Virus record (IMG/VR): IMGVR_UViG_2897341779_000002
Length of the DNA stretch: 42,611 nucleotides
Origin: a virus
Lineage: Duplodnaviria; Heunggongvirae; Uroviricota; Caudoviricetes
Reading direction: 5' to 3' (one strand)
Position 1 is the stretch's first letter; each line of letters begins with the position of its first letter. The position numbers and the translations under genes were made by a program. The notes beneath the pieces are model-generated. The model did no database searches. It saw nothing but the letters and a program-made list of their open reading frames with translations, and was not told the origin of the DNA. Positions 3,248-41,214 of this stretch are shown one piece after another.

Positions 3248-3852
3248 TAAGCAGTTGCCCCTTCTAATTCGTCTCGTCTGATGTTGTAAACGTCCTGCGC
3301 TTTGTGCTGCTCCGGCGTCCCTTCGAGCATCTTCCACGCTTTGGCGAACGCCTGTTTAAGCTCTTCTACGGTGTTTTTCTGCATTGCTGCGTCAGTGAAT
3401 GCTTTTAGAACCTGTTCAGGTGTAAGTGATGGTTTTGATTGCTTTGCTGCTGCGTTCTGCTGATGTTTATGCTCGTCTGTATCTGCATCTTTCGCATCAT
3501 CAATGCCGAACAAACCATTGAGGCAATACTTGCGTGCATAAGAGCTTGTAGCTCCCGTAACTTGTGCAGAATCCATTCCTTTCTTGCTTTCTTCCTCTCG
3601 TGCAAGAGCGGTTGCCGTATGACTGTTTTCGCCATCGGTAATAGTTGCCGTGGCTTTCACGTAATACCGATCACCAATCAACACAACTTCATCGCTGATT
3701 GATAAAAACAGACCGTTCAGTAACGGCTTAACGCCTTCAAGAATATCTTCGCAGCTTCTGTATTTATATTTGCCGAATGAGTTGTACTGATTCTTTGGCG
3801 CGTTCAGATTCTCCTGAATAGCTGCCAGTCTTGCGTAAAATTCTTTGCTCAT
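3247..3852 (-). CDS. erf: Erf single-strand annealing recombination protein
   Basis: Translation from MSKEFYARLAAIQENLNAPKNQYNSFGKYKYRSCEDILEGVKPLL... matches my memory of P22 Erf; start chosen at MSKEFY with an upstream GAGAG. Confidence 0.85.
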   Translation of the reverse strand: MSKEFYARLAAIQENLNAPKNQYNSFGKYKYRSCEDILEGVKPLLNGLFLSISDEVVLIGDRYYVKATATITDGENSHTATALAREEESKKGMDSAQVTGATSSYARKYCLNGLFGIDDAKDADTDEHKHQQNAAAKQSKPSLTPEQVLKAFTDAAMQKNTVEELKQAFAKAWKMLEGTPEQHKAQDVYNIRRDELEGATA

Positions 3853-3953
3853 ATGATTGCTCTCAGAATGGACACGGCCCAAGGAAATAACGCTGATTTA
3901 ATACTTCGACTCGGGACAAATTAAGGCATACCCGCATTCCTTCGCGGTCACCA

Positions 3954-4112
3954 TTATGGCGATACCAGAGAGCTTTCTGCGTGTACATGCGTCTCTGTAA
4001 CTTGCTCTCCTTCACTGTGGTTGCAAGTGACATGAATATCTCCTTCGTTACCGATTAATTCTTTTATCTGACGAATGAATTCTTCGTCTGACCAGTTATC
4101 CGTAAAACTCAT
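3954..4112 (-). CDS. hypothetical small protein (52 aa) in the kil position
   Basis: ORF starting at the ATGA overlap with the cIII stop; no similarity recognised. Confidence 0.4.
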   Translation of the reverse strand: MSFTDNWSDEEFIRQIKELIGNEGDIHVTCNHSEGEQVTETHVHAESSLVSP

Positions 4113-4279
4113 GGACGGCCTTGTTGTTTCAAAATATCCCAAAGCTTTTCGAGCAAGCTTTTCATTCTTGGTTGTTTAAAGTCTGCTCCGGTTAAAATGT
4201 TTTTTCGTGAATGCTGTACCGATAAAATCGGGTTGAAAGGGCGAACCGATGCCGCCCCTGCAATAGCGAACTGTTGCAT
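4109..4279 (-). CDS. cIII: CIII-like protein (FtsH inhibitor that protects CII)
   Basis: 56-aa ORF from internal Met with AGGAGC upstream; MQQFAIAG... and ...SLLEKLWDILKQQGRP resemble the lambda CIII core (MQYAIAG ... RLIDILNQPGVP) as I recall it. Confidence 0.65.
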   Translation of the reverse strand: MQQFAIAGAASVRPFNPILSVQHSRKNILTGADFKQPRMKSLLEKLWDILKQQGRP

Positions 4280-4343
4280 AGGATGCTCCTTCTGTTTGAT
4301 TGCATAACGAAAACGCCTCGAGTGAAGCGTTATTGGTATGCAT

Positions 4344-4369
4344 ATAAAAAAGCCCTCACACTGGAGGGC
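4344..4369 (-). terminator. rho-independent terminator-like hairpin (tL-type) between orf156 and cIII
   Basis: Minus-strand stem GCCCTC/GAGGGC with 6-nt loop followed by TTTTTTAT. Confidence 0.5.
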
Positions 4370-4473
4370 AAAGAAGATTTCCAATAATCAGAACAAGTCG
4401 GCTCCTGTTTAGTTACGAGCGACATTGCTCCGTGTATTCACTCGTTGGAATGAATACACAGTGCTTATTCGTA

Positions 4474-4944
4474 CTAATAAAACACCCAGTTTTCTGTTTC
4501 TTGGTTGTGTCCAAAGTTATATTCAATACCTGGTGTTGATGTATCAATATTCTTCATCCCATCAACAAGAGTTGATACAACAGCCAAATCTTGTTTGATT
4601 CTCATCAAATGGTATTTCTTCCGGCGCAATAAACTTTCAATGGCAAGTTTCTTCGTCGGGAATGCAAAAGATCTTTCTGCATTTTTTGCTACTTTCTTAA
4701 TTGCATATCTATTTCTCCTTTGTTTCCATTCCTGTAACCACTGATTTGGTGCTGGTTTAAAATTAACAATCCAATGCGCAGGAACCAACCATGCATAATG
4801 CTCTGTCTGATGAAAAGCTATATATTGAAGTGCGAATATTTTGATTCCATCTTCTTCAACTGTCGCTTGGAATCTCCAGAAAACAGGCATTCCATCATGT
4901 TCAGTTTCTGATTCAGGAAAAGGTACGCTCCATGATTTTGTCAT
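4474..4944 (-). CDS. hypothetical protein (156 aa) at the ral/sieB position
   Basis: ORF immediately downstream of N in the leftward operon; not membrane-like; no domain recognised. Confidence 0.6.
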   Translation of the reverse strand: MTKSWSVPFPESETEHDGMPVFWRFQATVEEDGIKIFALQYIAFHQTEHYAWLVPAHWIVNFKPAPNQWLQEWKQRRNRYAIKKVAKNAERSFAFPTKKLAIESLLRRKKYHLMRIKQDLAVVSTLVDGMKNIDTSTPGIEYNFGHNQETENWVFY

Positions 4945-4952
4945 ATATCACC

Positions 4953-5252
4953 TCAAATAAGTGGTTTGCTGCCTAATTTCATTTTCTGGCGACCAACACA
5001 AGTCACACCCATTTCACTGCGTGGCTTGCGGTAGTAAATACGATTCTGTTTACTCTCGACTTCATCTGCCTTCTTGCAGCGAAGGATTCCGAGTGATGCT
5101 GCTTTATCCGCTCTGACGCAACCAGAGAGCTTTAGCGCAATTTTTCGCGCCAGTCGCTGTTCTTGCATCGCCTGTTCACGTTGAGCCTGTCTGCGTGCTC
5201 TGCGGCGATTTCTGGCGTTATCGTCAGCCAGATATGTAATGACTACTGTCAT
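4953..5252 (-). CDS. N: antitermination protein N (phi21-like)
   Basis: Start placed at the internal Met with GGAGG upstream; arginine-rich N-terminus (NARNRRRARRQAQREQ) and C-terminus ...KQNRIYYRKPRSEMGVTCVGRQKMKLGSKPLI match my memory of phage 21 and lambda N C-termini. Confidence 0.8.
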   Translation of the reverse strand: MTVVITYLADDNARNRRRARRQAQREQAMQEQRLARKIALKLSGCVRADKAASLGILRCKKADEVESKQNRIYYRKPRSEMGVTCVGRQKMKLGSKPLI

Positions 5253-5565
5253 GTTGACCTCCGATGAAACAACTTTGGAATTGATAGTGATTGCAAAGTG
5301 GTTTCTGGCCCCTCGAACTGAGGGGCAGAAAGAGCATCTCGCCACCTAATAGGTCGATGCTCGGATCGAGAGATTTAATTAACCTCGGTTTTGAAGTTAT
5401 GCATTCACATAAATCCTCCTACCTCTTGTGCAGCTTTCTTGAATATGGTGGCGGCTGCATAACGCCTATGGAATTGACTTTGGCGGTGACGCGCCGGGTG
5501 CTTATCTTCCGGTTGCCGTCGTGCAGCTGCACTTCACGTCACCCCAAAGCCAACTACTCTTTGGT

Positions 5566-5583
5566 TCCCGCATTTCGGCGGGA
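5566..5583 (-). promoter_or_regulatory. nutL boxB-like hairpin
   Basis: On the leftward transcript this reads TCCCGCCGAAATGCGGGA, identical to the hairpin at 6723..6740 downstream of cro; a shared hairpin downstream of both PL and PR is the expected nut arrangement. Confidence 0.6.
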
Positions 5584-5644
5584 CAATCCCATCAATGTTA
5601 AAGAGCCTGCCAATCTGTTCCGTTTGGCTTCCAGCGTCCTGCTG

Positions 5645-5690
5645 ATGGCTTAAATTTAAGATCTCTTTAATTAATGGTCAAGAGCATTTT
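5645..5690 (-). promoter_or_regulatory. PL promoter / OL operator region
   Basis: Minus-strand -35 TTGACC (plus 5676..5681), 16-bp spacer, -10 TTAAAT (plus 5654..5659); ATTTAAGATCTCTTTAAT at 5654..5671 resembles the operator at 6473..6490. Confidence 0.45.
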
Positions 5691-5749
5691 TGAAGAAAAC
5701 TTAAATTTTCTTTCGTAACTTAAGTTTGGCTTTGATTTTTAAAGGAAAT

Positions 5750-5773
5750 AAAAAAAAAGGGGCGAATGCCCCC
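5750..5773 (-). terminator. rho-independent terminator after the repressor gene
   Basis: Minus-strand stem GGGGC/GCCCC with 4-nt loop followed by a run of 8-9 T, immediately after the cI stop codon. Confidence 0.6.
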
Positions 5774-6424
5774 TTATGGAAGGTTTGCTAGTTTTGCATC
5801 GACAACTACGCCGATGATTTTGCAGTTTCCGTTGATCTCGATCATCGGATATTGTGGGTTAAGTGGTTTTAGAAACTTCCTGCCTGCATCAATAACTAAC
5901 TTCTTGAAAGTTGCCTCGTTTTCTCCTTCGAGCTTTGCAACTACCAGTTTCCCGTTACGCGGCTCTACTTCAGGATCGACGAGTATTATCATTCCTTCAG
6001 GGATACTGAGACCGGCCGGAGCCGTCATTGAGTCTCCCTTCACGTCCAACCAAAACGAATCTTCTGAACAGTCTACGGTTGTATCGTACCAGTTATCTAT
6101 TGCACGCTTATGATATGGTTCTACAGCTTCCATCCAGCATCCTGCGCTCACCCAGCTAATCAGAGGGTATGACCCTCTTGGATCATGCCTACTGTGATAG
6201 GCAATGTTTGAAAGACTTTCCTCTCCTTTCATCAGATAGTCAGGGGAACACTTCAACGCATTAGCCAGGGCGAGAAGATTCTCTCCATTTGGCTCTGTCT
6301 CAGAGCGTTCCCACTGAGATATGGCAACATTAGACACGCCGACCATCTTTCCAAGTGCGGCCTGCCTGATCTTGAGTTCTTTTCTCCGAGCGCGAATGCG
6401 CTCTCCCATCAATTGAGTTTTCAT
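5774..6424 (-). CDS. cI: prophage repressor C2/CI (LexA-like S24 peptidase fold)
   Basis: 216-aa translation (MKTQLMGERIRARRKELKIRQAALGKMVGVSNVAISQWERSETEPNGENLL...) is nearly identical to my memory of P22 C2. Confidence 0.95.
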   Translation of the reverse strand: MKTQLMGERIRARRKELKIRQAALGKMVGVSNVAISQWERSETEPNGENLLALANALKCSPDYLMKGEESLSNIAYHSRHDPRGSYPLISWVSAGCWMEAVEPYHKRAIDNWYDTTVDCSEDSFWLDVKGDSMTAPAGLSIPEGMIILVDPEVEPRNGKLVVAKLEGENEATFKKLVIDAGRKFLKPLNPQYPMIEINGNCKIIGVVVDAKLANLP

Positions 6425-27301: not shown

Positions 27302-28753
27302 ATGGCTACGTGGCAACAGGGTATTAATTCTGGTGGGTTTCTGGCTGGCATCGGTACGCAAAATGAGAATGCGCCAAAGGCAAGCGACATTAACGCAACG
27401 CTTGGTCTGATCCGCGAAAACAATGAACTGGCTCGATCAGGTGCAAATAACGTTGCTCTGACAGGTCTTCGTGGTCTGGCTGGAGTTGCTGATATTTATA
27501 AGCAGCAGCAAAAGCAGGAGCGTAAAGCGGCATTCCAGAAAGGTTATGCGGATGCTTATGCGTCCGGCGACAGGGAGCAGATGCGTAATCTTATTACAGC
27601 ATTCCCCGAAGAGTTTGAGGAAGTCCGTAAAGGCATGGGGTATGTCGATGACGCCCAGCGGGATGATTTTGGCAATCTGGCGCTTAAGGCTCAGGTCGCT
27701 TCGTCGCTTGGTCCGGGTGCATTTGGCAGGTTCATGATGGATAACGAAAAGGAGATGCGTCGTTTAGGTATCCCTCCAGAAACTATTGCGGAAATGCAGG
27801 TTAATGACCCGCAGGGCTTCCAGCACTTCGCAGGTAATCTGGCACTATTTTCTCTCGGTCATGAGAAGTATTTCGATATCAAAGATCAAATGGAAGGTCG
27901 GGATATTGAGCGTGGCAAGTTGGCAGAGACGATTCGCAGCAATAAAGCTGGGGAAGGTTTAAAGGCGCAAAGCATTGCTGTTAGCCGTGAAAACTCCCTG
28001 CGCACTGCTGGAGGTGCTGTTCCTGCATCTGTTAAAGAATATCAATATTTCAACAGCCTGTCTCCAGAGCAACAAAAGACATATCTTCGTGTTCGAGGTC
28101 GTCCTGATGCTGGCGGGGAGAATGTTGTGCAACTGGCAGATGGCAGAACGGTAACGGTTGGTAGGAAGCTTCACGGCGCTGGTGCTAATGCGTTCTACGA
28201 AGGAATAGACAACGAGGGCAATATGATTCGCGTCCCCGCCAGTTCTATTGCTGCTCCGGCTACATCGGCAGCTAATGCACAGAATTACGAAATGAAGAAA
28301 GATCTTGATGCAATTTCTGGCGCATCAATTGACGATCTTGGCTTCATGACAGGTATTACAGGTTCTTCAGGTTCTTTTGCTCTTGGTGCAGATATTCGTA
28401 GCAGGGCATCTGGTGTTGAGGAGAGGAGGCTATACAACGCTGCACAGCGAATCATGGGCAAAATGCAAAATCAGGGGATTGCAGCAGCCCGAGATATGGG
28501 GGCATCTGGCATCAACACCGAAGCAGAGGCCAATAGGTATTTTCAGGGTATGCCAAAGCCTGATTTCTCAAGTCCTGAAGCGCTGCAACAATCAATGCGC
28601 GACATTCAGCAATATACCGACAATTACAACCAGCAATATAACGTTAATGTTGGTAATGGCGGGAAGAAATCATCAAGGCAACAGCCAGCTACTCAGCAAT
28701 CAGCAGGAGGTAGCTACACGTCAAAATCAGGCATTCAATTTACGGTGGAATGA
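27302..28753 (+). CDS. ejection (injection) protein, gp20-like
   Basis: 483-aa ORF in the gene 20 position. Confidence 0.7.
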
Positions 28754-30765
28754 TGAAAGTAACTGCAAATGGTAAGACATTTACCTTTCCTGATGGTACG
28801 AGCACGGAAGATATTGGGTCCGCCATTGATGAGTATTTTGCTGGTCAGTCAGCGCCAACACAACAAGGTGTTCAGCAATCGCCAGCAGACAACTCACTTG
28901 CATCAGGATATGCACAGCTTGCCACTCAGCAGAAGGAAGGACTAGATCGCTCTGCTGAGCAAGGGGCTGTTTTAGGTGCTGCAATGCGCGATGCCGTTAC
29001 CGGTGAAAGCCGAATGACACCAGAAATGGAGAGACTGCAAAATGTTGGGGCTGCCCCTGAGTTGAACTCACTAAGCATGGATGCCCTGAAGGCTGGATGG
29101 TCTCAACTTTTCGGCTCCGACGCGTCTCAGGAAAAGATTCTTCAGAGTATGGGGGCGAAATTAAGGCAGGATGAGAAGGGTAACACTATCGTTTCCCTGC
29201 CATCCGGTGATTATGCCCTGAACAAGCCAGGTTTATCACCGCAAGACCTGACTTCGTTTCTTGCTAATGCGTTAGCGTTCACACCAGCGGGCAGGGCTGG
29301 AACGGTGCTTGGTGCCATAGGGAAATCAGCTGCTACAGATTTAGCACTACAGGGTGGCACCAGCCTTGCTGGCGGAGAAGATATTGATCCTGCACAAACG
29401 GTAATTTCTGCTGGCATTGGTGGTGTTGGCAAGGGGCTGGAAAATACAGTTAGTGCGGTTTCCAGGGCTGTTCGCGGTGAGATGTCACCGGAAGCAAAGG
29501 CTGCTGTCGATTTTGCGTCGGAAAGAAACCTGCCGTTAATGACCAGTGACACGCTGAAAGATAAAACCTTTATGCAGAGTCAGGCTCAGACATTAGGCGA
29601 AAGAGTTCCTTTTTTTGGAACCGGTAAGAATCGGCTGAATCAACAACAAGCACGAGAAAATTTAGTCAGAACATTTAGCGATGGTCTGGGTGGCATTTCT
29701 GATAAACAGCTTTATGAATCTGCGACTAAAGGGCAACAAAAATTCATTGAGGCAGCAGGAAAGCGATATAACCGCATAATTGACGCTATGGGGGATACCC
29801 CTGTCGATCTCTCAAACACGGTAAAAGCTATCGACAATCAGATTGCCGTGTTAAGCCGCCCGGGCAAATCTCAGGATAGAGCCGCGGTAAAAGTCTTGCA
29901 GCAATTTAAAGACGATATCACCAGCGGACCCAATGACCTGCGTCTGGCGAGAGAAAACAGAACTGACCTTCGAAAGCGGTTCATGAATTCAAACGAGACT
30001 GTTGATAAAGACACGCTCCAGAAAGCCAGCGATATTGTCTACAAGGCATATACAGCGGATATGAAAAAAGCAGTATCCCAAAAACTAGGCTCAGAAGAAG
30101 CTGCCAATATGTCTAGGGTTGATCGCTCATGGGCTAGATTCAATGACATGATGGGAAGAACGCGCGTTCAAAAGGCAATAGCCAGCGGCAAGGCTACACC
30201 TGAGGATGTAACAAAACTCGTTTTTAGCCAAAACCCATCAGAACGTTCTCAGCTTTACATGCTTCTGGATGACAATGGTAGGCAAAACGCACGAGCAGCC
30301 ATAGTTCAGAATGCTGTAGATAAGGCGACTGATCCGTCTGGAAATATTAGTGTTGAAAAGTTTATTAATGCGTTACACCGGAACAGGAAGCAATCAGCAA
30401 CTTTCTTTAAAGGCGTACATGGAAAGGAACTGGACGGCGTTATTAAATACCTCAACGATACAAGACACGCGGCAAAAGCGAACGTTCAAAACTTAAATGG
30501 TCAGCAGCTTTATGGATTGTTAGTTGGTGGTGGCATCATAAACGCAGCAGTATTAGCGGGGATGCTAAAAACGGCTGCGTTTGTTGTTCCTGCTGCTGGT
30601 GTCGTAGGAGGAGCTGCGAAGGCATACGAAAGCCCTGTTATACGAAATGCCTTGTTACGTCTGGCAAATACGCCAAAAGGTAGCACAGCATATGACAGAG
30701 CGATCAGTACGGTCACACAATCGCTCACCAGAGTCGCACAGGCATCACAAAAAGAAGCTCAATAA
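28750..30765 (+). CDS. ejection (injection) protein, gp16-like
   Basis: 671-aa ORF in the gene 16 position, overlapping the preceding stop. Confidence 0.7.
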
Positions 30766-30782: not shown

Positions 30783-31133
30783 CTAATTTTTATTCTTTGA
30801 TCTCGTCCACAGGTAAAGAAGAGCAATGGCAAGACAGGAAACAGAGAATAGATAACCTACCTCATATGGTGCGCCAAAAAAATTAGCTATTGATACGGGC
30901 AAAAAAGCCGAAGCGATCAGAATTGAAAGGCAAAAAATAAGCCCAGTAACATAGTTTATTAAACTCTTAAATGAGAAACGTTTTGCTTGATTTACGGTCT
31001 CAGCGAGTGATCGCTTAACGATGGATAAAAGCAAATAGATGGCGACAGTAGCTAATGCCCCTTTCCACCAGTCTGGATATAGTTTTGCGACAATCAGCCC
31101 AAGGAAAACCATGATGACAGACTGAGCATTCAC
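30783..31133 (-). CDS. small inner-membrane protein (three predicted TM helices) at the sieA position
   Basis: 116-aa hydrophobic ORF convergent with gp16; P22 carries sieA here. No sequence identity is claimed. Confidence 0.55.
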   Translation of the reverse strand: MNAQSVIMVFLGLIVAKLYPDWWKGALATVAIYLLLSIVKRSLAETVNQAKRFSFKSLINYVTGLIFCLSILIASAFLPVSIANFFGAPYEVGYLFSVSCLAIALLYLWTRSKNKN

Positions 31134-31308: not shown

Positions 31309-31875
31309 ATGAGCAATGAGACTAATGGGATTGATGAAATGTTTAGCTTGAACGCTGCCAAAGCTGGAGTCGCAATAGGTTTGCTATTACAGCAAGCTTC
31401 TGCGTTCAGTTGTGAGGTGGTTGTTACTGATAACGTTCAGCACGCTTACCATCAATCCTCATTCAGCAGTGAACGGGCTAATGATGAGCTTCATGAGGCG
31501 GTGTCTTCGATTAAAGAATTGTCTCGAATGCTGAAATACGCTTATCGTGTTCTTGCAAACGCTACCGATGAGAATGTAGACAATGTGTTGTCTATCATTG
31601 AACCAGAAAAGTCTCGATTGATAGAGCATCAATTGAGAGGACTTGAAGGGGCAATGAAATCGGTATTCAAAGAAGCTTCTGCTGATTTTAAAGAGATCGC
31701 AAGAGATATCTATATCGTTGTTGCTGATGCCAGATCTGCCGTAACCAACCTGAATAGTCTTATTAAACAACGCTCATGTGTTCCGGTTGTTTTTGATAGT
31801 TCCGTAGATATGGCTGGTTTGCGTGCGCTTGCTGAGCACGGGACTCGTGTGTTTCACTCTGGTAACTTCCACTGA
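31309..31875 (+). CDS. hypothetical protein (188 aa), upstream partner of the YafO-like gene
   Basis: ATG 31309 preceded by AAGGAGG at 5-nt spacing; stop 31873..31875 lies 8 nt before the next ATG; no domain recognised. Confidence 0.7.
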   Translation: MSNETNGIDEMFSLNAAKAGVAIGLLLQQASAFSCEVVVTDNVQHAYHQSSFSSERANDELHEAVSSIKELSRMLKYAYRVLANATDENVDNVLSIIEPEKSRLIEHQLRGLEGAMKSVFKEASADFKEIARDIYIVVADARSAVTNLNSLIKQRSCVPVVFDSSVDMAGLRALAEHGTRVFHSGNFH

Positions 31876-31883
31876 GGTAAAAC

Positions 31884-32333
31884 ATGCAAGTAACCGTGGA
31901 ATATAATCAGGATAGTTTTGACTATTTTTTCTCCCCGGTTTTTGTTGAGTTTCCTGATTTAAAACAAACACTTGTAGATGATTTTATCATCTACAAGTCT
32001 ACGGGAACGTTGCCCAGCTATTTTGGCAGAGACACCTCTTATCATCGACCTCCTGATATTGAAGATGCAGGCCTTATGCACCTTCATTTAGCAATTGGTG
32101 AAAATAAATTTGAGCCAATAAAAAATGGCACAGATATCAGCACACCGCAAAAGTTGCAGTGGCATAAAACATCCAATACCGCTCTCGTTTATGCACAAAA
32201 TCTTTTTGATGAGAACAGGTATTCATTGATTGCTCTTTTTCATCCTGTAGCTCACATGTCTGCTAACAATCATAATAGAATGAGAGTGTTAGCAGGGTAT
32301 GCGAGAGACTTTAGAAACACTATGTTTGACTAA
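31884..32333 (+). CDS. YafO-family toxin-like protein
   Basis: 149-aa product shares motifs with E. coli YafO as I recall it: DFIIYKSTGTLPSYFGRD vs DFISYKRDGVLPDIFGRD; HLHLA vs HIHLA; ALVYAQNLFDE vs HLVYCQGAFDE; SLIALFHPVAH...NNHNRM vs LLIAILKPEPH...RDNNQM. Confidence 0.7.
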   Translation: MQVTVEYNQDSFDYFFSPVFVEFPDLKQTLVDDFIIYKSTGTLPSYFGRDTSYHRPPDIEDAGLMHLHLAIGENKFEPIKNGTDISTPQKLQWHKTSNTALVYAQNLFDENRYSLIALFHPVAHMSANNHNRMRVLAGYARDFRNTMFD

Positions 32334-32334
32334 A

Positions 32335-32357
32335 CCCACCGTCAGGTGGGTTTTTTA
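32335..32357 (+). terminator. terminator hairpin between the convergent YafO-like and ClpP-like genes
   Basis: CCCACC-GTCA-GGTGGG followed by TTTTTTAT. Confidence 0.55.
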
Positions 32358-32381
32358 TAAGGAGTAATCATGATTTACCCA

Positions 32382-32918
32382 TCAAACAACCCACCAGTTT
32401 GCCTGATTGGATGCCAGCCTTGCAGTTTTTATGGAATTAATTATGCCATGCTCAAGAGCCTTGTTAGCATCCAAAATGGTCGAGTCTGCTATCAGGGATG
32501 CCCACCTAATATGGGTTCCGATGTCGATATTGAACGTCTCAACGAAGCGATCAAGATCGTTATCGAGGCATTTCCCGTACTCTCTCAATCTGGCATGGTC
32601 GGCGGCTGGGGAGGCAAAGCACCATAATAGAGGATGTAACAGGAATCTTGATAATGGGTTTGCGAAACGTTCTGAGCCAGCCAGGAAAACGATATTAGCT
32701 ATGGATTCAACATTGCTTATGTTGTGAGTTCTAACGGTAACAGGGAGTGACTTAAGAAAGTTATACGCAGTAAAGCCAGCAGCAGTTTCCCCTCCCTGAC
32801 TTGATATATGGATATTTAATTCAGTTGCGCCTTGAGATAATGCGGTGAGACAGTGGTTCTGAAGTTGCCCAACAGTGGCAGTGTTAACAGGGCATAAGAA
32901 ATGAATTGTGTGCAGCAT
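32382..32918 (-). CDS. ClpP/S14-S49-fold serine peptidase-like protein (178 aa)
   Basis: ISSQGGETAAGFTAYNFL aligns with the ClpP INSPGG...AG segment and a His is conserved near LHPLLW; ATG overlaps the mnt stop (TAATG). Confidence 0.6.
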   Translation of the reverse strand: MLHTIHFLCPVNTATVGQLQNHCLTALSQGATELNIHISSQGGETAAGFTAYNFLKSLPVTVRTHNISNVESIANIVFLAGSERFANPLSRFLLHPLLWCFASPAADHARLREYGKCLDNDLDRFVETFNIDIGTHIRWASLIADSTILDANKALEHGIINSIKTARLASNQANWWVV

Positions 32919-33166
32919 TATTTTTCATCCTTAGCATACATGGTCTTTAGCGTCTCAAGTAGCGCCTCTTTGAATTTATCAGCTTCTTGCTGAGCAAATG
33001 ACTCAACTGACTTTGGCGACCTATCTTCATCAATCGCGGCTTGCAAAATCATGACGATCTCGGAGTTAACAGAGCGACCATTTTTTGATGCTCTGACAGC
33101 AAGAGCCTCGCGTAAAGATTCAGGGATTCTTACCGTAGTTGGAGAAATTGACACACCCTTTGCCAT
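32918..33166 (-). CDS. mnt: Mnt repressor (ribbon-helix-helix)
   Basis: From the internal Met the 82-aa product MAKGVSISPTTVRIPESLREALAVRASKNGRSVNSEIVMILQAA... resembles P22 Mnt (NGRSMNSE motif). Confidence 0.8.
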   Translation of the reverse strand: MAKGVSISPTTVRIPESLREALAVRASKNGRSVNSEIVMILQAAIDEDRSPKSVESFAQQEADKFKEALLETLKTMYAKDEK

Positions 33167-33280
33167 ATAACACCTTTGGTATTCAATTTGATAGCAAAGT
33201 GTATGCAAAAAAATTTTGACTAGATATACTCACTTTGCTATCTTTTGTATTCGAAAAGAGTTGTTTGCGTGGAGGGTAAC
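33167..33280. promoter_or_regulatory. immI control region (Pant/Pmnt with operator-like inverted repeat)
   Basis: Perfect 11-bp inverted repeat ATAGCAAAGTG (33203..33213) / CACTTTGCTAT (33231..33241) flanking TTGACT; TATCTT follows 17 bp after TTGACT; lies between divergent mnt and arc. Confidence 0.55.
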
Positions 33281-33433
33281 ATGGAGAAAGAAATAAGTAA
33301 GATTTTGGTAAGGATGCCGCAGTCGTTAAAGGATGCTATCGGTAGCAGGGCAAAGGAAGAGTGCAGGTCGTTTAACTCAGAGGTTATCAAGCGCCTGATA
33401 GACAGCCTGAAGAGAGAGGGGGTAACGGTGTGA
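33281..33433 (+). CDS. arc: Arc repressor (ribbon-helix-helix)
   Basis: 50-aa product from ATG 33281 (GGAGGG RBS): MEKEISKILVRMPQSLKDAIGSRAKEECRSFNSEVIKRLIDSLKREGVTV, resembling P22 Arc. Confidence 0.8.
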   Translation: MEKEISKILVRMPQSLKDAIGSRAKEECRSFNSEVIKRLIDSLKREGVTV

Positions 33434-33665
33434 TTCGCTTGGATGCAGTAGTCAAAGAGATTGCGATTACCATTTTAAGACCAAATTTTGTTCATGGCGA
33501 ATCATTTGGCACGAACGAAAAATTGAGAAGAGAAAGAGTATTCAGTGGCAAGCGCACGTTTTCAGAAGTGATGCTTGATGCGGCAAAGAAATCAAAACAG
33601 TGAAGCCCCAACTGCTGGAACAGTCAGGGCTTCGGTTGTCGGTAAATCCGTGGAGAAAAACCAAC

Positions 33666-34568
33666 ATGAATAGTATAGCAATTTTAGAAGCAGTGAACAC
33701 CTCTTACGTGCCATTCAACGGTCAGCAAATTATCACCGCCATGGCTGCCGGAGTTGCATATGTTGCGATGAAGCCAATCGTTGAAAACCTCGGAATGAGC
33801 TGGTCAACGCAGCAAACAAAACTCATGAAGCAGATTAGCAAATTCAACTGTGTTCATATGAACATGGTTGCCGCTGATGGTAAGCTTCGTAAGCTACTCT
33901 GCCTTCCTTTGAAGAAGTTAAATGGATGGCTGTTCAGCATCAACCCTGAGAAAGTTCGTGCTGACATCCGCGATAAACTGATTCAGTACCAGGAAGAATG
34001 CTTTACTGTGCTGCATGACTACTGGACAAAGGGAGAGGCAGCAAATGCACGGAAGAAAACATCTGTTGATGACAGGACTCCGCTTCGTGATGCTGTAAAT
34101 ATGCTAGTCAGCAAAAAGCATCTAATGTACCCAGAAGCTTATGCAATGATTCATCAGCGTTTCAATGTGGAAAGTATTGAAGAGCTTGATGCATCTCAGA
34201 TACCACAAGCAGTAGAGTACATCCACAGGGTAGTGCTTGAAGGTGAGTTCATCGGCAAACAAGAGAAGAAAACCAACGAGCTTTCTGCAAAAGAAGCAAA
34301 CAGCCTTGTATGGCTATGGGATTATGCCAACCGCTCACAGGCATTATTCCGCGAACTGTATCCGGCGCTAAAACAAATTCAATCGAACTATTCCGGCAGA
34401 TGTCATGACTGCGGTTATGAGTTCTCCCGTATTATCGATATGGCGAGAGACGTTTTAATCAATCACACACGAGATGTTGATATCAATGAGCCAGACGGAC
34501 CAACGAATCTTTCCGCATGGATGAGACTTAAGAATAAAGAATTACCTCCTTCAGTACATAATTACTGA
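33666..34568 (+). CDS. ant: antirepressor Ant
   Basis: From [43 protein letters not shown]... the 300-aa product matches the P22 Ant N-terminus and length from memory. Confidence 0.85.
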
Positions 34569-34890: not shown

Positions 34891-36432
34891 ATGCCAACAG
34901 TTCCAATTTCTATGAGAAAACTTAAAGAAATTCTTAGGCTTAAATACGGTGTTGGACTCAGCCATCGACAAATTGGTCGTAGTCTTGCAATCTCCCCTTC
35001 CGTTGTATCCAGATATGCTAATCGGGCGGCTCAACTTGGCATAAAGCAGTGGCCCTTACCTACAGGATGGGATGATACAAAACTAAAACATGCGTTCCTT
35101 CAGACCCAGGTTAAGATGAAGAAGCACTCTCTGCCTGACTGGGCTACAGTACACCGGGAACTGCGTAATAAATGCGTGACGCTGCAGCTACTCTGGGAAG
35201 AATACTGTGAGCGTAATCCAGGCGGTTTTTACAGCTATAACCATTACTGCCGGATGTACCGTGAATGGCTCAAAACCACTTCACCATCAATGCGTCAGGT
35301 ACATAAAGCTGGCGAAAAACTTTTCGTTGATTACTGTGGACCTACCGTTGGCGTTACCGACCCTGAGACCGGAGAAATAAGAACTGCTCAGGTCATCGTA
35401 GCTGTTCTCGGGGCATCAAGTTACACATGGGCAGAGGCCACCTGGTCTCAGCAGCTTGAAGACTGGGTGATGAGTCATGTTCGCTGCTTCCAGTGGTTGG
35501 GTGGCGTTCCTGAACTTGTTGTTCCGGACAATCTGAAAAGCGCCACATCCAGGGCATGTAAGTATGATCCTGACGTTAACCCTACCTACCAGCAGATGCT
35601 TGAGCATTATAATGTCGCAGTTTTGCCTGCGCGGCCACGTAAACCGAAAGATAAAGCCAAAGCTGAAGTTGGCGTTCAGGTTGTTGAACGCTGGATCATG
35701 GCCCGAATCAGGCATGAGATCTTCTACAGCCTTGCATCGCTTAATCAGCGCATTCGGGAGTTGCTGGAAAGACTGAATAACAAAATAATGCAGAAGTTGG
35801 GTTATTCACGTGCAGAACTCTTCATCCAGCTTGATAAACCCGCACTGAAGCCTCTTCCTGAAGCCAGTTACAGTTACACCCTGGTGAAGAAAGTCAGAGT
35901 TCATGCCGATTACCACGTGGAAATCGACAAACATTACTACTCGGTTCCATGTTCGCTGTTAGGCCAGCAACTGGAAGCATGGATCTCCGGAGAACTGGTA
36001 AGACTCTTCAATCAGGGGCAGGAGGTTGCTGTGCACCCGCGCAAGCGTACTTATGGCTACAGTACCCGCAACGAGCACATGCCTGAAGCTCATCGACAGC
36101 ATGCCACCTGGACGCCAGAGCGTCTTCTGGAATGGGCGGGGCACATAGGCAGTGAAACTCATAGTTATGTGCTTCATATACTGAACTCTCGTCCACATCC
36201 GGAACAAAGCTATCGCTTCTGCCTTGGACTCCTGAACCTTCATAAAAAATACAGTAAAGCCAGACTTAATGCAGCATGTGCAAGAGCTCTGAAAACAAAG
36301 GTATGGCGTCTGTCAGGTATTAAATCGATCCTGGAAAAAGGTCTGGATAAACAACCTGTTCAGGATCCAAAACCAGATCTGTTATCCACGATGGAACACG
36401 AAAACGTACGCGGCAGTGAGTATTACCACTGA
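34891..36432 (+). CDS. istA: IS21-family transposase IstA
   Basis: 513-aa ORF with N-terminal HTH-like segment and DDE-type integrase core, immediately followed by istB. Confidence 0.85.
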   Translation: MPTVPISMRKLKEILRLKYGVGLSHRQIGRSLAISPSVVSRYANRAAQLGIKQWPLPTGWDDTKLKHAFLQTQVKMKKHSLPDWATVHRELRNKCVTLQLLWEEYCERNPGGFYSYNHYCRMYREWLKTTSPSMRQVHKAGEKLFVDYCGPTVGVTDPETGEIRTAQVIVAVLGASSYTWAEATWSQQLEDWVMSHVRCFQWLGGVPELVVPDNLKSATSRACKYDPDVNPTYQQMLEHYNVAVLPARPRKPKDKAKAEVGVQVVERWIMARIRHEIFYSLASLNQRIRELLERLNNKIMQKLGYSRAELFIQLDKPALKPLPEASYSYTLVKKVRVHADYHVEIDKHYYSVPCSLLGQQLEAWISGELVRLFNQGQEVAVHPRKRTYGYSTRNEHMPEAHRQHATWTPERLLEWAGHIGSETHSYVLHILNSRPHPEQSYRFCLGLLNLHKKYSKARLNAACARALKTKVWRLSGIKSILEKGLDKQPVQDPKPDLLSTMEHENVRGSEYYH

Positions 36433-36443
36433 TACGGGATCCA

Positions 36444-37193
36444 ATGATGAATCATCTTTACGAACAACTGACCGCACTTAAACTCACCGGCTTCCGTGAT
36501 GCGCTTAAAAAGCAACTTGCTCAGCCGGGCACATACCAGGAGCTGGGCTTCGAAGAACGCCTGTCATTACTGACAGCAGAAGAACTAACCTGCCGTGAAA
36601 ACAGGAAGGCAGAGCGTCTGATCAAACATGCACGGTTCAGACTTAATGCTGAGTTATCAAAGCTGGATTATCGTAACAATAGAGGGCTGGACAGGGCCCT
36701 CATCCGTTCACTCAGTCAGGGAAACTGGTTAACCCTGAAACAAAATATTTTACTGACCGGGGCCACCGGCAGCGGTAAAACGTTCCTGGCATGTGCACTT
36801 GGTCATAATGCCTGCCGACAGGGATACAAGGTCTACTATTATCGCCTTAAAGCGCTGATGGAACAGTGCTATCAGGGGCATGCTGATGGAAGATACAGCA
36901 AACTTTTGACCAGGCTGAATAATAGCGATCTGCTGCTTCTGGATGACTGGGGGCTGGAACCTCTCTCATCAGAACAGCGTAGCGACCTGCTGGAAATAGT
37001 GGATCTGATGTACCAACGAGGCTCAATCATCGTAGTGAGCCAGTTGCCGGTGGAAAACTGGTACAAAATGATCGGAGACTCCACACATGCGGATGCCATC
37101 CTAGATCGACTGGTTCATGGCAGTATCAAGATCGAACTTAAAGGAGAATCAATGCGGAAAATACAATCACCGTTGACCGAAGGAGATCAGTGA
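36444..37193 (+). CDS. istB: IS21-family helper ATPase IstB
   Basis: 249-aa ORF with Walker A LTGATGSGKTFLACAL and Walker B LLLLDDWG. Confidence 0.9.
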   Translation: MMNHLYEQLTALKLTGFRDALKKQLAQPGTYQELGFEERLSLLTAEELTCRENRKAERLIKHARFRLNAELSKLDYRNNRGLDRALIRSLSQGNWLTLKQNILLTGATGSGKTFLACALGHNACRQGYKVYYYRLKALMEQCYQGHADGRYSKLLTRLNNSDLLLLDDWGLEPLSSEQRSDLLEIVDLMYQRGSIIVVSQLPVENWYKMIGDSTHADAILDRLVHGSIKIELKGESMRKIQSPLTEGDQ

Positions 37194-37287: not shown

Positions 37288-40200
37288 ATGCCTTCGCAAC
37301 TCTTCACTATGGCGCGTTCTTTTAAAGCCGTAGCCAATGGCAAAATTTATATCGGTAAAATTGACACTGACCCGGTAAATCCTGAAAACCGGATTCAGGT
37401 TTATGTAGAGAACGAAGACGGCTCTCACGTTCCTGTTTCGCAACCAATCATCATTAACGCTGCTGGTTACCCTGTATATAACGGACGGATTGCCAAGTTC
37501 GTAACTGTGCAAGGCCATTCTATGGCTGTGTACGATGCGTATGGCGTACAGCAGTTCTATTTCCAGAATGTGCTGAAGTATGATCCTGATCAACTACGGC
37601 AGCAATTAGAAGACCCAGATGGAGCGAATAAATACCCAAAACTTCAGATAGCAAGATGGAGAGACAGTTATGATGTAAGAGGTTGGGGGGCTATTGGTGA
37701 TGGTGTTCATGATGATACATCAGCTCTATCAGAATTACTTTCTGTTGCAACAGGTGGTGAAAAGATAGATGGGCGAGGGCTTACTTTTAAAGTATCAACT
37801 CTTCCAGATGTCAGTCGATTTAAAAATGCTCGTTTTTTATTTGAGAGAATACCGGGTCAGCCTCTTTTTTATGTTTCTGAAGATTTTATCCAGGGAGAGT
37901 TATTTAAAATTACAGATACACCGTGGTACAACGCCTGGACGCAGGATAAAACGTTTGTATATGACAATGTCATCTATGCGCCTTTTATGGCTGGAGACCG
38001 CCATGGTGTAAATAACCTCCATGTTGCATGGGTTCGCTCAGGAGATGACGGGAAGACCTGGACAACGCCGGAATGGCTTACAGATTTACATGAAAACTAT
38101 CCCACAGTTAACTATCACTGCATGAGTATGGGGGTTGTCAGAAATCGCCTTTTTGCTGTAATTGAGACGCGGACCGTGAGCGGAAATAAACTGCAGGTTG
38201 CAGAGTTGTGGGATCGCCCAATGAGTCGCAGCCTTCGCGTTTATGGTGGTATAACGAAAGCAGCAAATCAGCAAGTCGCTTATATTCGCATTACTGATCA
38301 CGGATTATTTGCTGGTGATTTTGTCAACTTCTCAAACTCTGGTGTTACAGGTGTTACCGGGAATATGACGGTGACTACTGTTATTGATAAAAATACTTTT
38401 ACAGTTACGACGCAAAATACCCAGGATGTGGATCAGAATAACGAGGGTAGATACTGGAGTTTTGGTACATCATTTCACTCGTCACCATGGAGAAAAACCA
38501 GTCTTGGAACTATTCCTTCTTTTGTTGACGGAAGCACTCCTGTTACTGAGATTCACAGTTTTGCGACGATTAGCGATAACAGTTTTGCTGTTGGCTACCA
38601 TAATGGTGATATTGGTCCACGCGAGCTTGGGATACTCTATTTCTCTGATGCTTTCGGTTCTCCTGGTAGCTTTGTTCGCAGACGCATACCTGCAGAATAT
38701 GAGGCGAATGCATCTGAGCCATGTGTAAAATATTATGATGGCATTCTGTATCTGACGACCAGGGGGACATTAAGTACTCAACCCGGTAGTTCATTGCACA
38801 GAAGCTCTGATTTAGGTACATCATGGAATTCTCTTCGCTTCCCAAATAATGTTCATCACTCAAACCTTCCTTTTGCCAAAGTTGGCGATGAGCTGATTAT
38901 TTTTGGCAGTGAGCGCGCATTTGGTGAGTGGGAAGGAGGAGAACCTGATAACCGTTATGCAGGAAACTATCCAAGAACATTTATGACCAGAGTTAACGTC
39001 AATGAGTGGAGTCTGGATAATGTAGAGTGGGTTAATGTTACTGATCAGATTTATCAGGGCGGAATAGTTAACTCTGCGGTTGGTGTTGGTTCAGTTTGTA
39101 TCAAAGACAACTGGCTGTACTACATTTTCGGTGGGGAAGACTTTCTAAACCCATGGAGCATAGGGGATAACAACAGAAAATATCCTTATGTTCACGATGG
39201 TCACCCGGCTGATTTGTATTGTTTCAGGGTGAAAATTAAACAGGAAGAATTTGTTTCAAGGGATTTTGTCTACGGAGCCACTCCTAACAGAACGCTTCCT
39301 ACTTTTATGTCGACGTCAGGCGTGAGGACGGTTCCTGTACCCGTTGATTTCACAGATGATGTTGCCGTCCAGTCACTGACTGTCCATGCAGGTACATCAG
39401 GACAAGTTCGCGCGGAAGTCAAACTTGAGGGTAATTACGCCATTATTGCGAAGAAAGTACCGTCTGATGATGTTACCGCTCAGAGATTAATCGTTAGCGG
39501 CGGTGAAACAACGTCTTCAGCAGATGGTGCAATGATAACGTTGCATGGTTCCAGAAGCAGTACTCCACGTCGCGCGGTATATAACGCACTCGAACATCTT
39601 TTTGAGAACGGAGATGTTAAACCTTATCTTGATAATGTAAATGCTCTTGGTGGTCCGGGAAACAGGTTCTCGATAGTTTATCTTGGCTCCAATCCTGTGG
39701 TTACCAGTGACGGAACATTAAAGACAGAGCCGGTCTCTCCTGACGAAACATTGCTGGATGCCTGGGGTGACGTCAGGTATATCGCTTATAAATGGCTGAA
39801 CGCTGTCGCTATAAAGGGGGAAGAAGGGGCGAGGATACATCATGGTGTAATCGCGCAGCAACTTCGTGATGTTCTTATTTCTCACGGACTCATGGAAGAA
39901 GAAAGCACAACATGCCGCTATGCCTTTCTTTGCTATGACGATTATCCCGCAGTATATGATGACGTCATTACTGGCCAAAGGGAAATGCCGCTGACTGATA
40001 ATGACGGGAGCATCATTGTTGATGAGGATGATAATCCAGTGATGGTAATGGAAGACATCATTGAGCGCGTTGAAATAACGCCAGCAGGATCTAGATGGGG
40101 GGTCAGACCTGATCTCTTATTCTATATCGAGGCAGCATGGCAGCGCAGAGAAATAGAAAGAATAAAAGCTAGGTTAGACTTAATAGAAGGGAAGCACTAA
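37288..40200 (+). CDS. tailspike body: P22-type head-binding domain fused to an endosialidase-like domain and C-terminal intramolecular chaperone domain; separated from its first 10 codons by the IS
   Basis: N-terminal ...[39 protein letters not shown]...VLKYDPDQ matches the P22 tailspike head-binding domain; Asp-box-like SGDDGKTW and SSDLGTSW; C-terminal S-DGTLK (Ser/Lys at i, i+5) and [10 protein letters not shown] recall the endosialidase chaperone domain. Confidence 0.8.
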
Positions 40201-40353: not shown

Positions 40354-41214
40354 ATGTTAAGACTCAAGACTCAAGACTCAAGACTCAAGACTCAAGACTC
40401 AAGACTCAAGACTCAAGACTCAAGACTCAAGACTCAAGACTCAAGACTCAAGACTCAAGACTCAAGACTCAAGACTCAAGACTCAAGACTCAAGACTCAA
40501 GACTCAAGACTCAAGACTCAAGACTCAAGACTCAAGACTCAAGACTCAAGACTCAAGACTCAAGACTCGTTTTCCGTTGATGATAATGGGTCAGGTAATG
40601 TTTTTGTATGTGGAGATCTTGTAAATAGCAAAGAGAATAAAGTTCAGTTCAATGGAAACAATAACAAACTTATTATAGAAGATGATGTTGAGTGTCGATG
40701 GCTTACCGTAATATTTAGGGGTGATAATAATTACGTAAGAATACATAAAAACAGTAAGATTAAAGGTGATATTGTCGCAACAAAAGGTTCAAAAGTTATT
40801 ATCGGTAGAAGAACGACAATAGGTGCAGGTTTTGAAGTCGTCACTGATAAGTGCAATGTTACAATTGGCCATGACTGCATGATAGCAAGAGATGTTATTT
40901 TGCGTGCATCAGATGGGCATCCTATATTTGATATTCATAGCAAAAAAAGGATTAATTGGGCAAAAGATATCATTATATCTAGTTACGTATGGGTAGGGAG
41001 AAATGTCTCTATAATGAAAGGAGTATCTGTTGGAAGCGGATCTGTCATTGGGTATGGGAGTATTGTAACTAAAGATGTGCCATCTATGTGTGCAGCAGCC
41101 GGTAATCCAGCAAAAATAATAAAAAGAAATATAATATGGGCAAGAACGGATAAAGCGGAGCTAATTAGTGATGACAAGAGATGCTCCAGCTATCATGCGA
41201 AGCTCACGCAATAA
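40354..41214 (+). CDS. neuO: phase-variable polysialic acid O-acetyltransferase NeuO-like (hexapeptide-repeat acyltransferase)
   Basis: 286-aa ORF: N-terminal RLKTQDS x10 encoded by AAGACTC heptads, then left-handed beta-helix hexapeptide repeats (IGAGFEV, IGHDCMI, VGRNVSI, VGSGSVI, IGYGSIV); location downstream of the tailspike as described for CUS-3. Confidence 0.85.
   Translation: MLRLKTQDSRLKTQDSRLKTQDSRLKTQDSRLKTQDSRLKTQDSRLKTQDSRLKTQDSRLKTQDSRLKTQDSFSVDDNGSGNVFVCGDLVNSKENKVQFNGNNNKLIIEDDVECRWLTVIFRGDNNYVRIHKNSKIKGDIVATKGSKVIIGRRTTIGAGFEVVTDKCNVTIGHDCMIARDVILRASDGHPIFDIHSKKRINWAKDIIISSYVWVGRNVSIMKGVSVGSGSVIGYGSIVTKDVPSMCAAAGNPAKIIKRNIIWARTDKAELISDDKRCSSYHAKLTQ
40359..40568 (+). repeat. 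30 tandem copies of the heptanucleotide AAGACTC inside the neuO 5' coding region
   Basis: Counted directly: 210 bp of perfect AAGACTC repeats = 30 units, a multiple of 3, so the reading frame is maintained. Confidence 0.9.

Follow-up and report, generated by a model that had tools for sequence, protein, structure and literature searches.

The closest described relative of the protein considered here, the product of a ClpP-like gene in a 42,611-nt stretch of Escherichia coli prophage DNA (IMG/VR record IMGVR_UViG_2897341779_000002; the whole stretch is hereafter called the window), is ClpP1 of Pseudomonas plecoglossicida (PpClpP1), whose structure is PDB entry 9UXT (PMC12900304). PpClpP1 is truncated by more than 15 residues at the N-terminus and forms a homotetradecamer with an axial pore of 42.7 A; its active site is made up of Ser73, His96 and Pro151, and activity depends on the serine and the histidine but not on the third residue (PMC12900304). 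As a peptidase PpClpP1 is 13-fold less active than ClpP2, the canonical paralogue, and it shows no binding to ClpX; together, PpClpP1 and ClpP2 form a stable heterotetradecamer that is more active with ClpX (PMC12900304). The first structure for such truncated, PpClpP1-like paralogues appeared in 2026. A second point of comparison is offered by the single cargo genes (morons) of temperate phages, such as bor of lambda and sieA of P22, the latter being expressed from the prophage (PMC10461980).

The window represents a CUS-3-type, P22-like prophage of E. coli and carries the ClpP-like gene directly behind mnt, the gene of a lysogeny repressor. Our preferred reading, in which we place slightly better than even confidence, is that this gene is a prophage moron encoding a gate-less ClpP of the PpClpP1 type, which would act either in rings of its own or in hybrids with the ClpP of the host.

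A truncated member of the ClpP superfamily

The 178-amino acid (aa) protein matches the Pfam family CLP_protease (PF00574) with an E-value of 2e-11 and 44.4 bits, against a gathering cut-off of 20.2. Its best solved relative is chain A of 9UXT, aligned over residues 3-175 with E=1.6e-35, and the next ClpPs follow at 1e-7. An AF2 model derived from 35 homologues (pLDDT 93.5) superimposes on 9uxt_A with a TM of 0.93 and an rmsd of 1.6 A, and on ordinary ClpPs with a TM of about 0.8 (Foldseek range TM 0.8-0.93). Judged by these profile matches and by the model, it is a real ClpP-fold protein and a member of the ClpP superfamily. An earlier note on this DNA had placed it in a ClpP/S14-S49 fold; the S14 part of that assignment stands, and the S49 part falls away, as no Peptidase S49 family is found among the Pfam matches at E<=1. 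We likewise rejected membership of the Ser-Lys peptidases of that family (SppA / lambda C), for which there is no profile match, the general base being the invariant His95.

The protein falls far below the models that define canonical ClpP, scoring 19-40 bits on those of NCBIfam against cut-offs of 228-361 (19.2 bits versus 308.6 for TIGR00493; 24-40 bits versus 228-361 for the PRK models). Its best PHROG match is PHROG 94, a family of ClpP-related head-maturation proteases (7e-21), with which it shares a phage-borne gene and the ClpP fold; on the corresponding NCBIfam model, NF045542, it reaches 49.3 bits against a cut-off of 120. Unlike the genes of head-maturation proteases, the ClpP-like gene lies outside the head module, in the immunity-I (immI) region between gene 16 and arc/ant and on the opposite strand, and is predicted to share a transcript with the lysogeny repressor. 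No protease takes part in the maturation of P22-like capsids. We therefore rejected a head-maturation protease as its identity, in agreement with the earlier note, which had pointed out that P22-like phages have no prohead protease.

It is with PpClpP1 that the protein agrees best. The two belong to the same length class (178 versus 183 aa), share the N-terminal truncation, have equivalent serine and histidine residues (72/95 versus 73/96) and a non-acidic residue at the position of the aspartate, and carry a conserved tryptophan close to the C-terminus. The protein hence has the marks of a PpClpP1-type truncated paralogue: about 180 aa, no N-terminal domain, a retained Ser-His pair with a non-acidic third residue, and 9UXT as its closest solved relative. 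There are also differences: the identity is only 38-45%, the third position is occupied by serine in the phage protein and by proline in PpClpP1, and the putative partner of the window protein would be the single ClpP of E. coli. Moreover, the Pseudomonas gene is chromosomal, whereas the gene in the window is prophage cargo behind mnt. Orthologues of PpClpP1 in Pseudomonas sit on the chromosome next to genes for KGG stress proteins and DUF6555 proteins, surroundings that suggest a stress-linked locus; the possibility that PpClpP1 is itself prophage-borne was rejected on account of this chromosomal setting. The flanking KGG-repeat general-stress and DUF6555 genes are seen in two different groups of Pseudomonas (loci L103-L108).

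Active site, pore and docking surface

Ser72 and His95 are invariant across the 35 homologues, down to 32% identity, and align with S97 and H122 of E. coli ClpP. The residue aligned with E. coli D171 is Ser146, in a column that is variable (Ser, Ala or Thr; Pro in PpClpP1), and the adjacent Asp145 is not conserved. Of the Ser-His-Asp triad of canonical ClpP, the family has accordingly kept the serine and the histidine, and a conserved aspartate is absent. The earlier note had left it to an alignment to say whether a Ser-His(-Asp) or a Ser-Lys set is intact; the alignment returns an intact Ser-His pair, with His95 at the place of His122, no aspartate and no support for Ser-Lys. Its remark that the context of the catalytic serine is atypical was right in substance, the nucleophile Ser72 being embedded in NVESIAN as opposed to GxAAS(M)G. 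The motif ISSQGG (residues 38-43), which it had read as a ClpP-like signature, does correspond to the 'NSPGG' oxyanion motif of ClpP, and S39, S40, G42 and G43 are among the invariant residues; it does not hold the catalytic serine.

The gate of the ClpP pore is formed by the N-terminal loops (PMC9035409). This axial-loop segment, which in canonical ClpP also contacts the ATPase, is absent in every member of the family, the start of the protein falling at about residue 60 of the E. coli precursor, and by alignment about 45 N-terminal residues of mature ClpP are missing.

The pocket of E. coli ClpP that receives the IGF/L-loop of the ATPase, which we take to consist of Y60, Y62, F82, I90, M92, F112, L114 and L189, aligns with N35, H37, S57, H65, I67, F85, N87 and K164 of the window protein, an equivalence drawn from the alignment only. 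Six of these eight positions are non-hydrophobic (Y60N, Y62H, F82S, I90H, L114N and L189K) and two stay hydrophobic, M92 being replaced by isoleucine and F112 being retained as phenylalanine; the hydrophobic ATPase-docking pocket of canonical ClpP thus appears to have been lost. A C-terminal NWWV motif is conserved and forms a beta-strand in the AF2 model. In Listeria ClpP2, the docking site can be filled by the C-terminus.

Compared with canonical ClpP (MEROPS S14; E. coli), then, the window protein shares the core alpha/beta fold, the handle helix, the oxyanion motif and the Ser-His pair. In contrast, the identity is about 20%, the axial loops, Asp171 and any pair of the Arg170/Asp171 type are lacking, and the residues of the pocket are replaced. 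The E. coli copies are named 'ATP-dependent Clp protease proteolytic subunit' in RefSeq. Because the protein fails on four features of a canonical ATP-dependent ClpP (aspartate, gate, docking pocket, NCBIfam score), this name goes further than present knowledge and is probably misleading, the features of an ATPase partnership being missing as far as the alignment can tell.

Coupling to mnt

The earlier note had described a 178-aa open reading frame (ORF) that begins on the stop codon of mnt, and it is indeed present: the A at 32918 is common to the TAA of mnt and the ATG of the ClpP-like gene, the minus strand reading TAATG. The Shine-Dalgarno sequence of the ClpP-like gene, AAGGA, sits within the coding sequence of mnt, and this internal site together with the overlap bears out the translational coupling that had been proposed. 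A sequence scan reported no terminator-like site between the two genes, and we infer that both are carried by one transcript, with mnt as the first cistron and the ClpP-like gene as the second. The upstream ORF aligns over its full length with the P22-type Mnt of phage SE21 (36% identity, E=7e-14) and is divergently paired with arc, the sar RNA and ant; from these matches it is taken to be a genuine mnt.

A 9-bp GC-rich hairpin at 32332-32353 follows 25 nt beyond the stop codon of the ClpP-like gene and is common to it and to the convergent gene of a YafO-like toxin. It was overlooked by the simple terminator scan and was read from the sequence and then folded; the 61-nt minus-strand stretch 32325-32385 that includes it folds with -18.2 kcal/mol (z = -2.6). 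It makes a good terminator on the plus strand; on the minus strand its tail is only UUU.

Distribution, selection and cargo behaviour

We examined 100 related loci from genome and viral contig collections, together with two annotated phage records. At an identity of at least 95% the ClpP-like gene is found in 127 of 5426 complete E. coli genomes (about 2%), always on the chromosome, and in particular in extraintestinal pathogenic (ExPEC) and avian pathogenic (APEC) strains of the ST95/K1 type, which carry CUS-3-like prophages. Six sequenced phages carry it as well. Homologues ranging from 88% to ~32% identity occur in Pectobacterium, Leclercia, Serratia, Providencia, Klebsiella, Pantoea, Erwinia, Proteus, Citrobacter, Rahnella, Chromobacterium and betaproteobacteria. 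Pairwise comparison with orthologues by the Nei-Gojobori method gives dN/dS values of 0.07-0.17, with dS at or near saturation; the gene is under strong purifying selection, which together with its occurrence in these genomes speaks against a fortuitous reading frame.

Copies of at least 80% identity with a readable upstream region (~45 loci) all start on the same TAATG behind a Mnt-type gene. The Mnt partners in this clade represent at least five different alleles, across which only the last ~12 residues (ETLKTMYGKDEK) are constant. The last ~12 codons of mnt (ETLKTMYAKDEK) hence travel with the ClpP-like gene, which places the boundary of the cassette inside the 3' end of mnt, the part that carries the Shine-Dalgarno sequence. 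The pair of mnt and the ClpP-like gene is found in the P22-like phages phiv205-1, E212 and EC.P3 and also in the lambda-like PhiR12 phages, where it forms part of a whole ant-arc-mnt module inserted between the tail genes L and K. In Escherichia phage PhiR12_5, a lambda-like siphovirus, the complete ant-arc-mnt-ClpP-like module spans 3525-5537.

Among the loci examined, none of the copies at 52-75% identity has a Mnt neighbour, and a ribbon-helix-helix (RHH) partner is absent from all examined homologues at 75% identity and below. The copies at 52-75% are lone genes, located either between the endolysin/Rz genes and the terminase, which is the position of lambda bor, or, in prophages of the myovirus type, at a second site flanked by the tape-measure and baseplate-hub genes; the neighbouring ORFs on both sides run on the other strand in 21 of their 37 distinct contexts. 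Such occurrence as an isolated gene, in changing positions of unrelated prophages and frequently antisense to the late genes around it, is the behaviour of a prophage moron. Upstream of a 52%-identical paralogue in E. coli lies a conserved 182-aa gene on the same strand (phrog_5483; locus L094, 3374-3922), the two sitting between the terminase and the lysis genes.

The slot between gene 16 and mnt is a known variable cargo position. P22-type phages have orf59a and the prophage-expressed exclusion gene sieA there, and the P22-like Escherichia phage N7 has three ORFs (115, 169 and 106 aa; 5089-6330) after mnt and on the same strand, the first starting on the mnt stop codon, the second overlapping it and the third being separated from the second by 80 bp. 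The statement of the earlier note that nothing follows mnt in P22 is therefore incorrect. Like the morons sieA and bor, the ClpP-like gene stands alone as cargo in a slot of variable content and runs against the late genes; it shares the slot of sieA here and occupies the Rz-terminase slot elsewhere. The proteins themselves are unrelated: unlike SieA, an inner-membrane protein, the window protein is predicted to be soluble and has a protease fold.

A proposed role in the lysogen

Mnt is needed in the prophage state of P22, and for this reason the ClpP-like gene would be translated from the mnt transcript in lysogens. Expression in the lysogen, deduced from the coupling to mnt alone, would be low and constitutive, the protein being made whenever Mnt is made. 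The protein is a ClpP core that keeps the Ser-His pair and is devoid of the N-terminal axial gate, the conserved aspartate and the pocket on which the IGF-loop of the ATPase docks. By homology it would assemble into heptameric rings with a wide-open pore. Two such rings could make up a tetradecamer of its own, an ATP-independent and weak peptidase acting on peptides and unfolded chains; alternatively, one ring could stack on a heptamer of host ClpP to give a hybrid core, on which ClpX or ClpA would dock from the host-ClpP side only. Either arrangement would alter degradation in the lysogen, in the hybrid case through the output of ClpXP and ClpAP. The formation of hybrids with E. coli ClpP and the biological pay-off are speculative; candidates for the latter are the exclusion of phages, the stabilisation or removal of particular regulators, and fitness under stress.

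Several points weigh against this proposal. The oligomeric state of the protein, its activity and any association with E. coli ClpP are carried over from a Pseudomonas protein of 38-45% identity, and that protein is encoded on the chromosome beside stress genes rather than in a prophage, and has co-evolved with a partner of its own. Read in the direction of the ClpP-like gene, the hairpin 3' of it makes a weak terminator, and a consensus promoter scan did not locate Pmnt in the mnt/arc control region. Literature searches found no description of prophage copies; correspondingly, we could not find described either the phage-borne branch of the truncated ClpP family or its fixed attachment to mnt.

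Numerous regulators, of phages as well as of stress, are controlled by host ClpXP and ClpAP, and a ClpP subunit supplied by a prophage during lysogeny could for that reason alter host proteolysis, the stability of the prophage or resistance to other phages. While the identity of the protein is clear and will not surprise specialists on Clp proteases, a gate-less ClpP beside a lysogeny repressor is a concrete lead that is easily testable. The recently solved PpClpP1 can now be seen within a wider family, the enterobacterial branch of which is phage-borne, with relatives of the window gene in Klebsiella, Pantoea, Proteus and other genera. A bolder generalization is that prophages of the Enterobacterales spread a gate-less, ATPase-independent ClpP effector, made in lysogeny, that either enters the host ClpP barrel to give hybrid 7+7 cores, which would redirect the flow of substrates through ClpXP and ClpAP, or serves as an open-pore protease against the unfolded proteins of superinfecting phages. 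We consider this rather improbable; if true, it would amount to a protease-based mechanism of exclusion or host takeover of a kind not catalogued so far.

Alternative explanations

The alternative that survives best, though we think it unlikely, is that the gene encodes a superinfection-exclusion or anti-phage effector, in which a gate-less protease made by the lysogen destroys proteins of an incoming phage that are unfolded or have been ejected, or brings about an abortive self-digestion. Its location speaks for this, as P22-type phages keep sieA in the variable slot from gene 16 to mnt, the homologues occupy moron slots in many types of prophages and the gene is coupled to a lysogeny gene. 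Open-pore variants of ClpP and ADEP-activated ClpP are also known to degrade unfolded proteins without an ATPase, which provides a precedent for the activity. On the other side, the closest characterised relative is a chromosomal paralogue of a housekeeping or stress type with weak activity, and no conserved partner gene for a sensor accompanies the homologues. A search of PADLOC-DB v2 gave no match for the ClpP-like protein or for Mnt, a negative that carries little weight because PADLOC also misses SieA.

A good deal less probable is an accessory role in immI, where the protease would trim or remove Ant (or Arc or Mnt) and so prevent induction by a leaky antirepressor. The strict linkage to mnt within the clade of at least 80% identity, maintained despite the exchange of mnt alleles, and the movement of the gene with the ant-arc-mnt module into lambda-like phages are both in line with such a role. 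However, the homologues of 52-75% identity are under the same purifying selection in prophages that offer no mnt, arc or ant neighbour, and P22 and most of its relatives operate immI without a ClpP-like gene.

We attach very little credence to a toxin-antitoxin-like pair, with the RHH protein as antitoxin or autoregulator and the protease as toxin, or to a regulator of the stability of the YafO-like pair, to which the earlier note had linked the gene. An RHH gene overlapped by a second gene does resemble the layout of many type II toxin-antitoxin operons, and the YafO-like pair (31309-32333, plus strand) is close by: it consists of a gene for a 188-aa protein (phrog_8416) and one for a 149-aa YafO-family toxin (Pfam E=3e-22), the latter convergent with the ClpP-like gene and 48 bp from it. 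The RHH gene, however, is a full-length mnt beside arc, sar and ant, and most homologues have no RHH partner, which leaves no conserved two-gene partnership. As for YafO, the two neighbours occur independently: among the complete E. coli genomes the ClpP-like gene is present in 127, the 188-aa and YafO-like pair in 54 and the whole 2.3-kb stretch in ~48. Among the 30 matches listed, 5 extend over the ClpP-like gene, mnt and arc (the two Arc-family genes) without the YafO pair; conversely, in at least one genome mnt/arc are accompanied by the YafO pair and not by a ClpP-like gene, and none of the distant ClpP-like homologues examined, in other prophages, has a YafO neighbour. The pair and the ClpP-like gene are therefore independent modules, the proposed functional link does not hold, and both forms of this explanation are already largely refuted by distribution. 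The 188-aa partner is far larger than the antitoxin YafN.

Least credible of all is a decaying remnant of a head-maturation protease or a functionless, inactive pseudo-protease, a view that can point to head-maturation protease families as the best PHROG matches and to one phage record that annotates the gene as such, and that is already contradicted by the sub-cut-off NCBIfam score (49 versus 120 bits), a location that is outside the head module and on the other strand, the invariant serine and histidine, a dN/dS of about 0.1 across deep divergence, and a similarity to a cellular ClpP paralogue far closer than to any phage protease.

Layout of the prophage and neighbouring genes

The plus strand of the window carries the genes for terminase, portal, scaffold, coat and ejection proteins up to gene 16 (28750-30765), beyond which lie the immI region (Table 1), an IS21 element, the endosialidase tailspike gene, a gene for a NeuO-type acetyltransferase and the integrase gene.

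Table 1. Positions of the ClpP-like gene and of the immI features around it in the window
Feature	Position	Strand	Evidence
Hairpin AAACCCACC-GTCA-GGTGGGTTT, with a run of T after it on the + strand	32332..32356		sequence; RNA fold
ClpP-like gene, 178 aa, N-terminally truncated PpClpP1-type paralogue	32382..32918	-	ORF, Pfam, PDB, model
Coupling junction	32916..32932	-	SD (Shine-Dalgarno) AAGGA 32932-32928, TAA 32920-32918, ATG 32918-32916
mnt homologue, 82 aa, RHH repressor	32918..33166	-	Pfam Arc/RHH domain E=9.5e-11
Divergent mnt/arc control region	33167..33280		sequence
arc homologue	33281..33433	+	ORF + Pfam
sar antisense RNA	33599..33665	-	Rfam RF00262, 83.9 bits
ant (antirepressor)	33666..34568	+	Pfam P22_AR_N/C

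The intergenic region between mnt and arc contains a Pant-like promoter, TTGACT-17-TATCTT, on the plus strand at 33216-33244. Flanking it is a perfect 12-bp inverted repeat, GATAGCAAAGTG / CACTTTGCTATC, at 33190-33201 / 33231-33242, the arms of which are candidate operator half-sites. The 3' end of sar is a 14-bp hairpin, listed at 33633-33602 by the terminator scan.

Directly after gene 16, at the position of sieA in P22, is an ORF for a predicted membrane protein of 116 aa (30783-31133, minus strand). It was considered as a SieA and rejected, having no similarity to that protein, and it has no match in PHROG, Pfam or PADLOC. PADLOC likewise yielded nothing useful for the YafO pair and for the cargo genes of related phages.

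The tailspike gene (37288-40200) encodes a K1 endosialidase that bears a head-binding domain of the P22 type and, at its C-terminus, an S74 chaperone domain, and it is by this tailspike that the prophage was recognised as CUS-3-like. The 5' end of the hexapeptide acetyltransferase gene (40354-41214) carries 30 perfect tandem copies of AAGACTC (40359-40568), the NeuO-type phase-variation repeat of the K1 prophage CUS-3; as 30 copies are a multiple of three, the frame is open. Between ant and the tailspike gene lies the IS21-family element (34891-37193), with istA (513 aa) and istB (249 aa). In the related phage phiv205-1, other 'transposase' genes separate the antirepressor-like gene from a split tailspike/tail-fibre gene.

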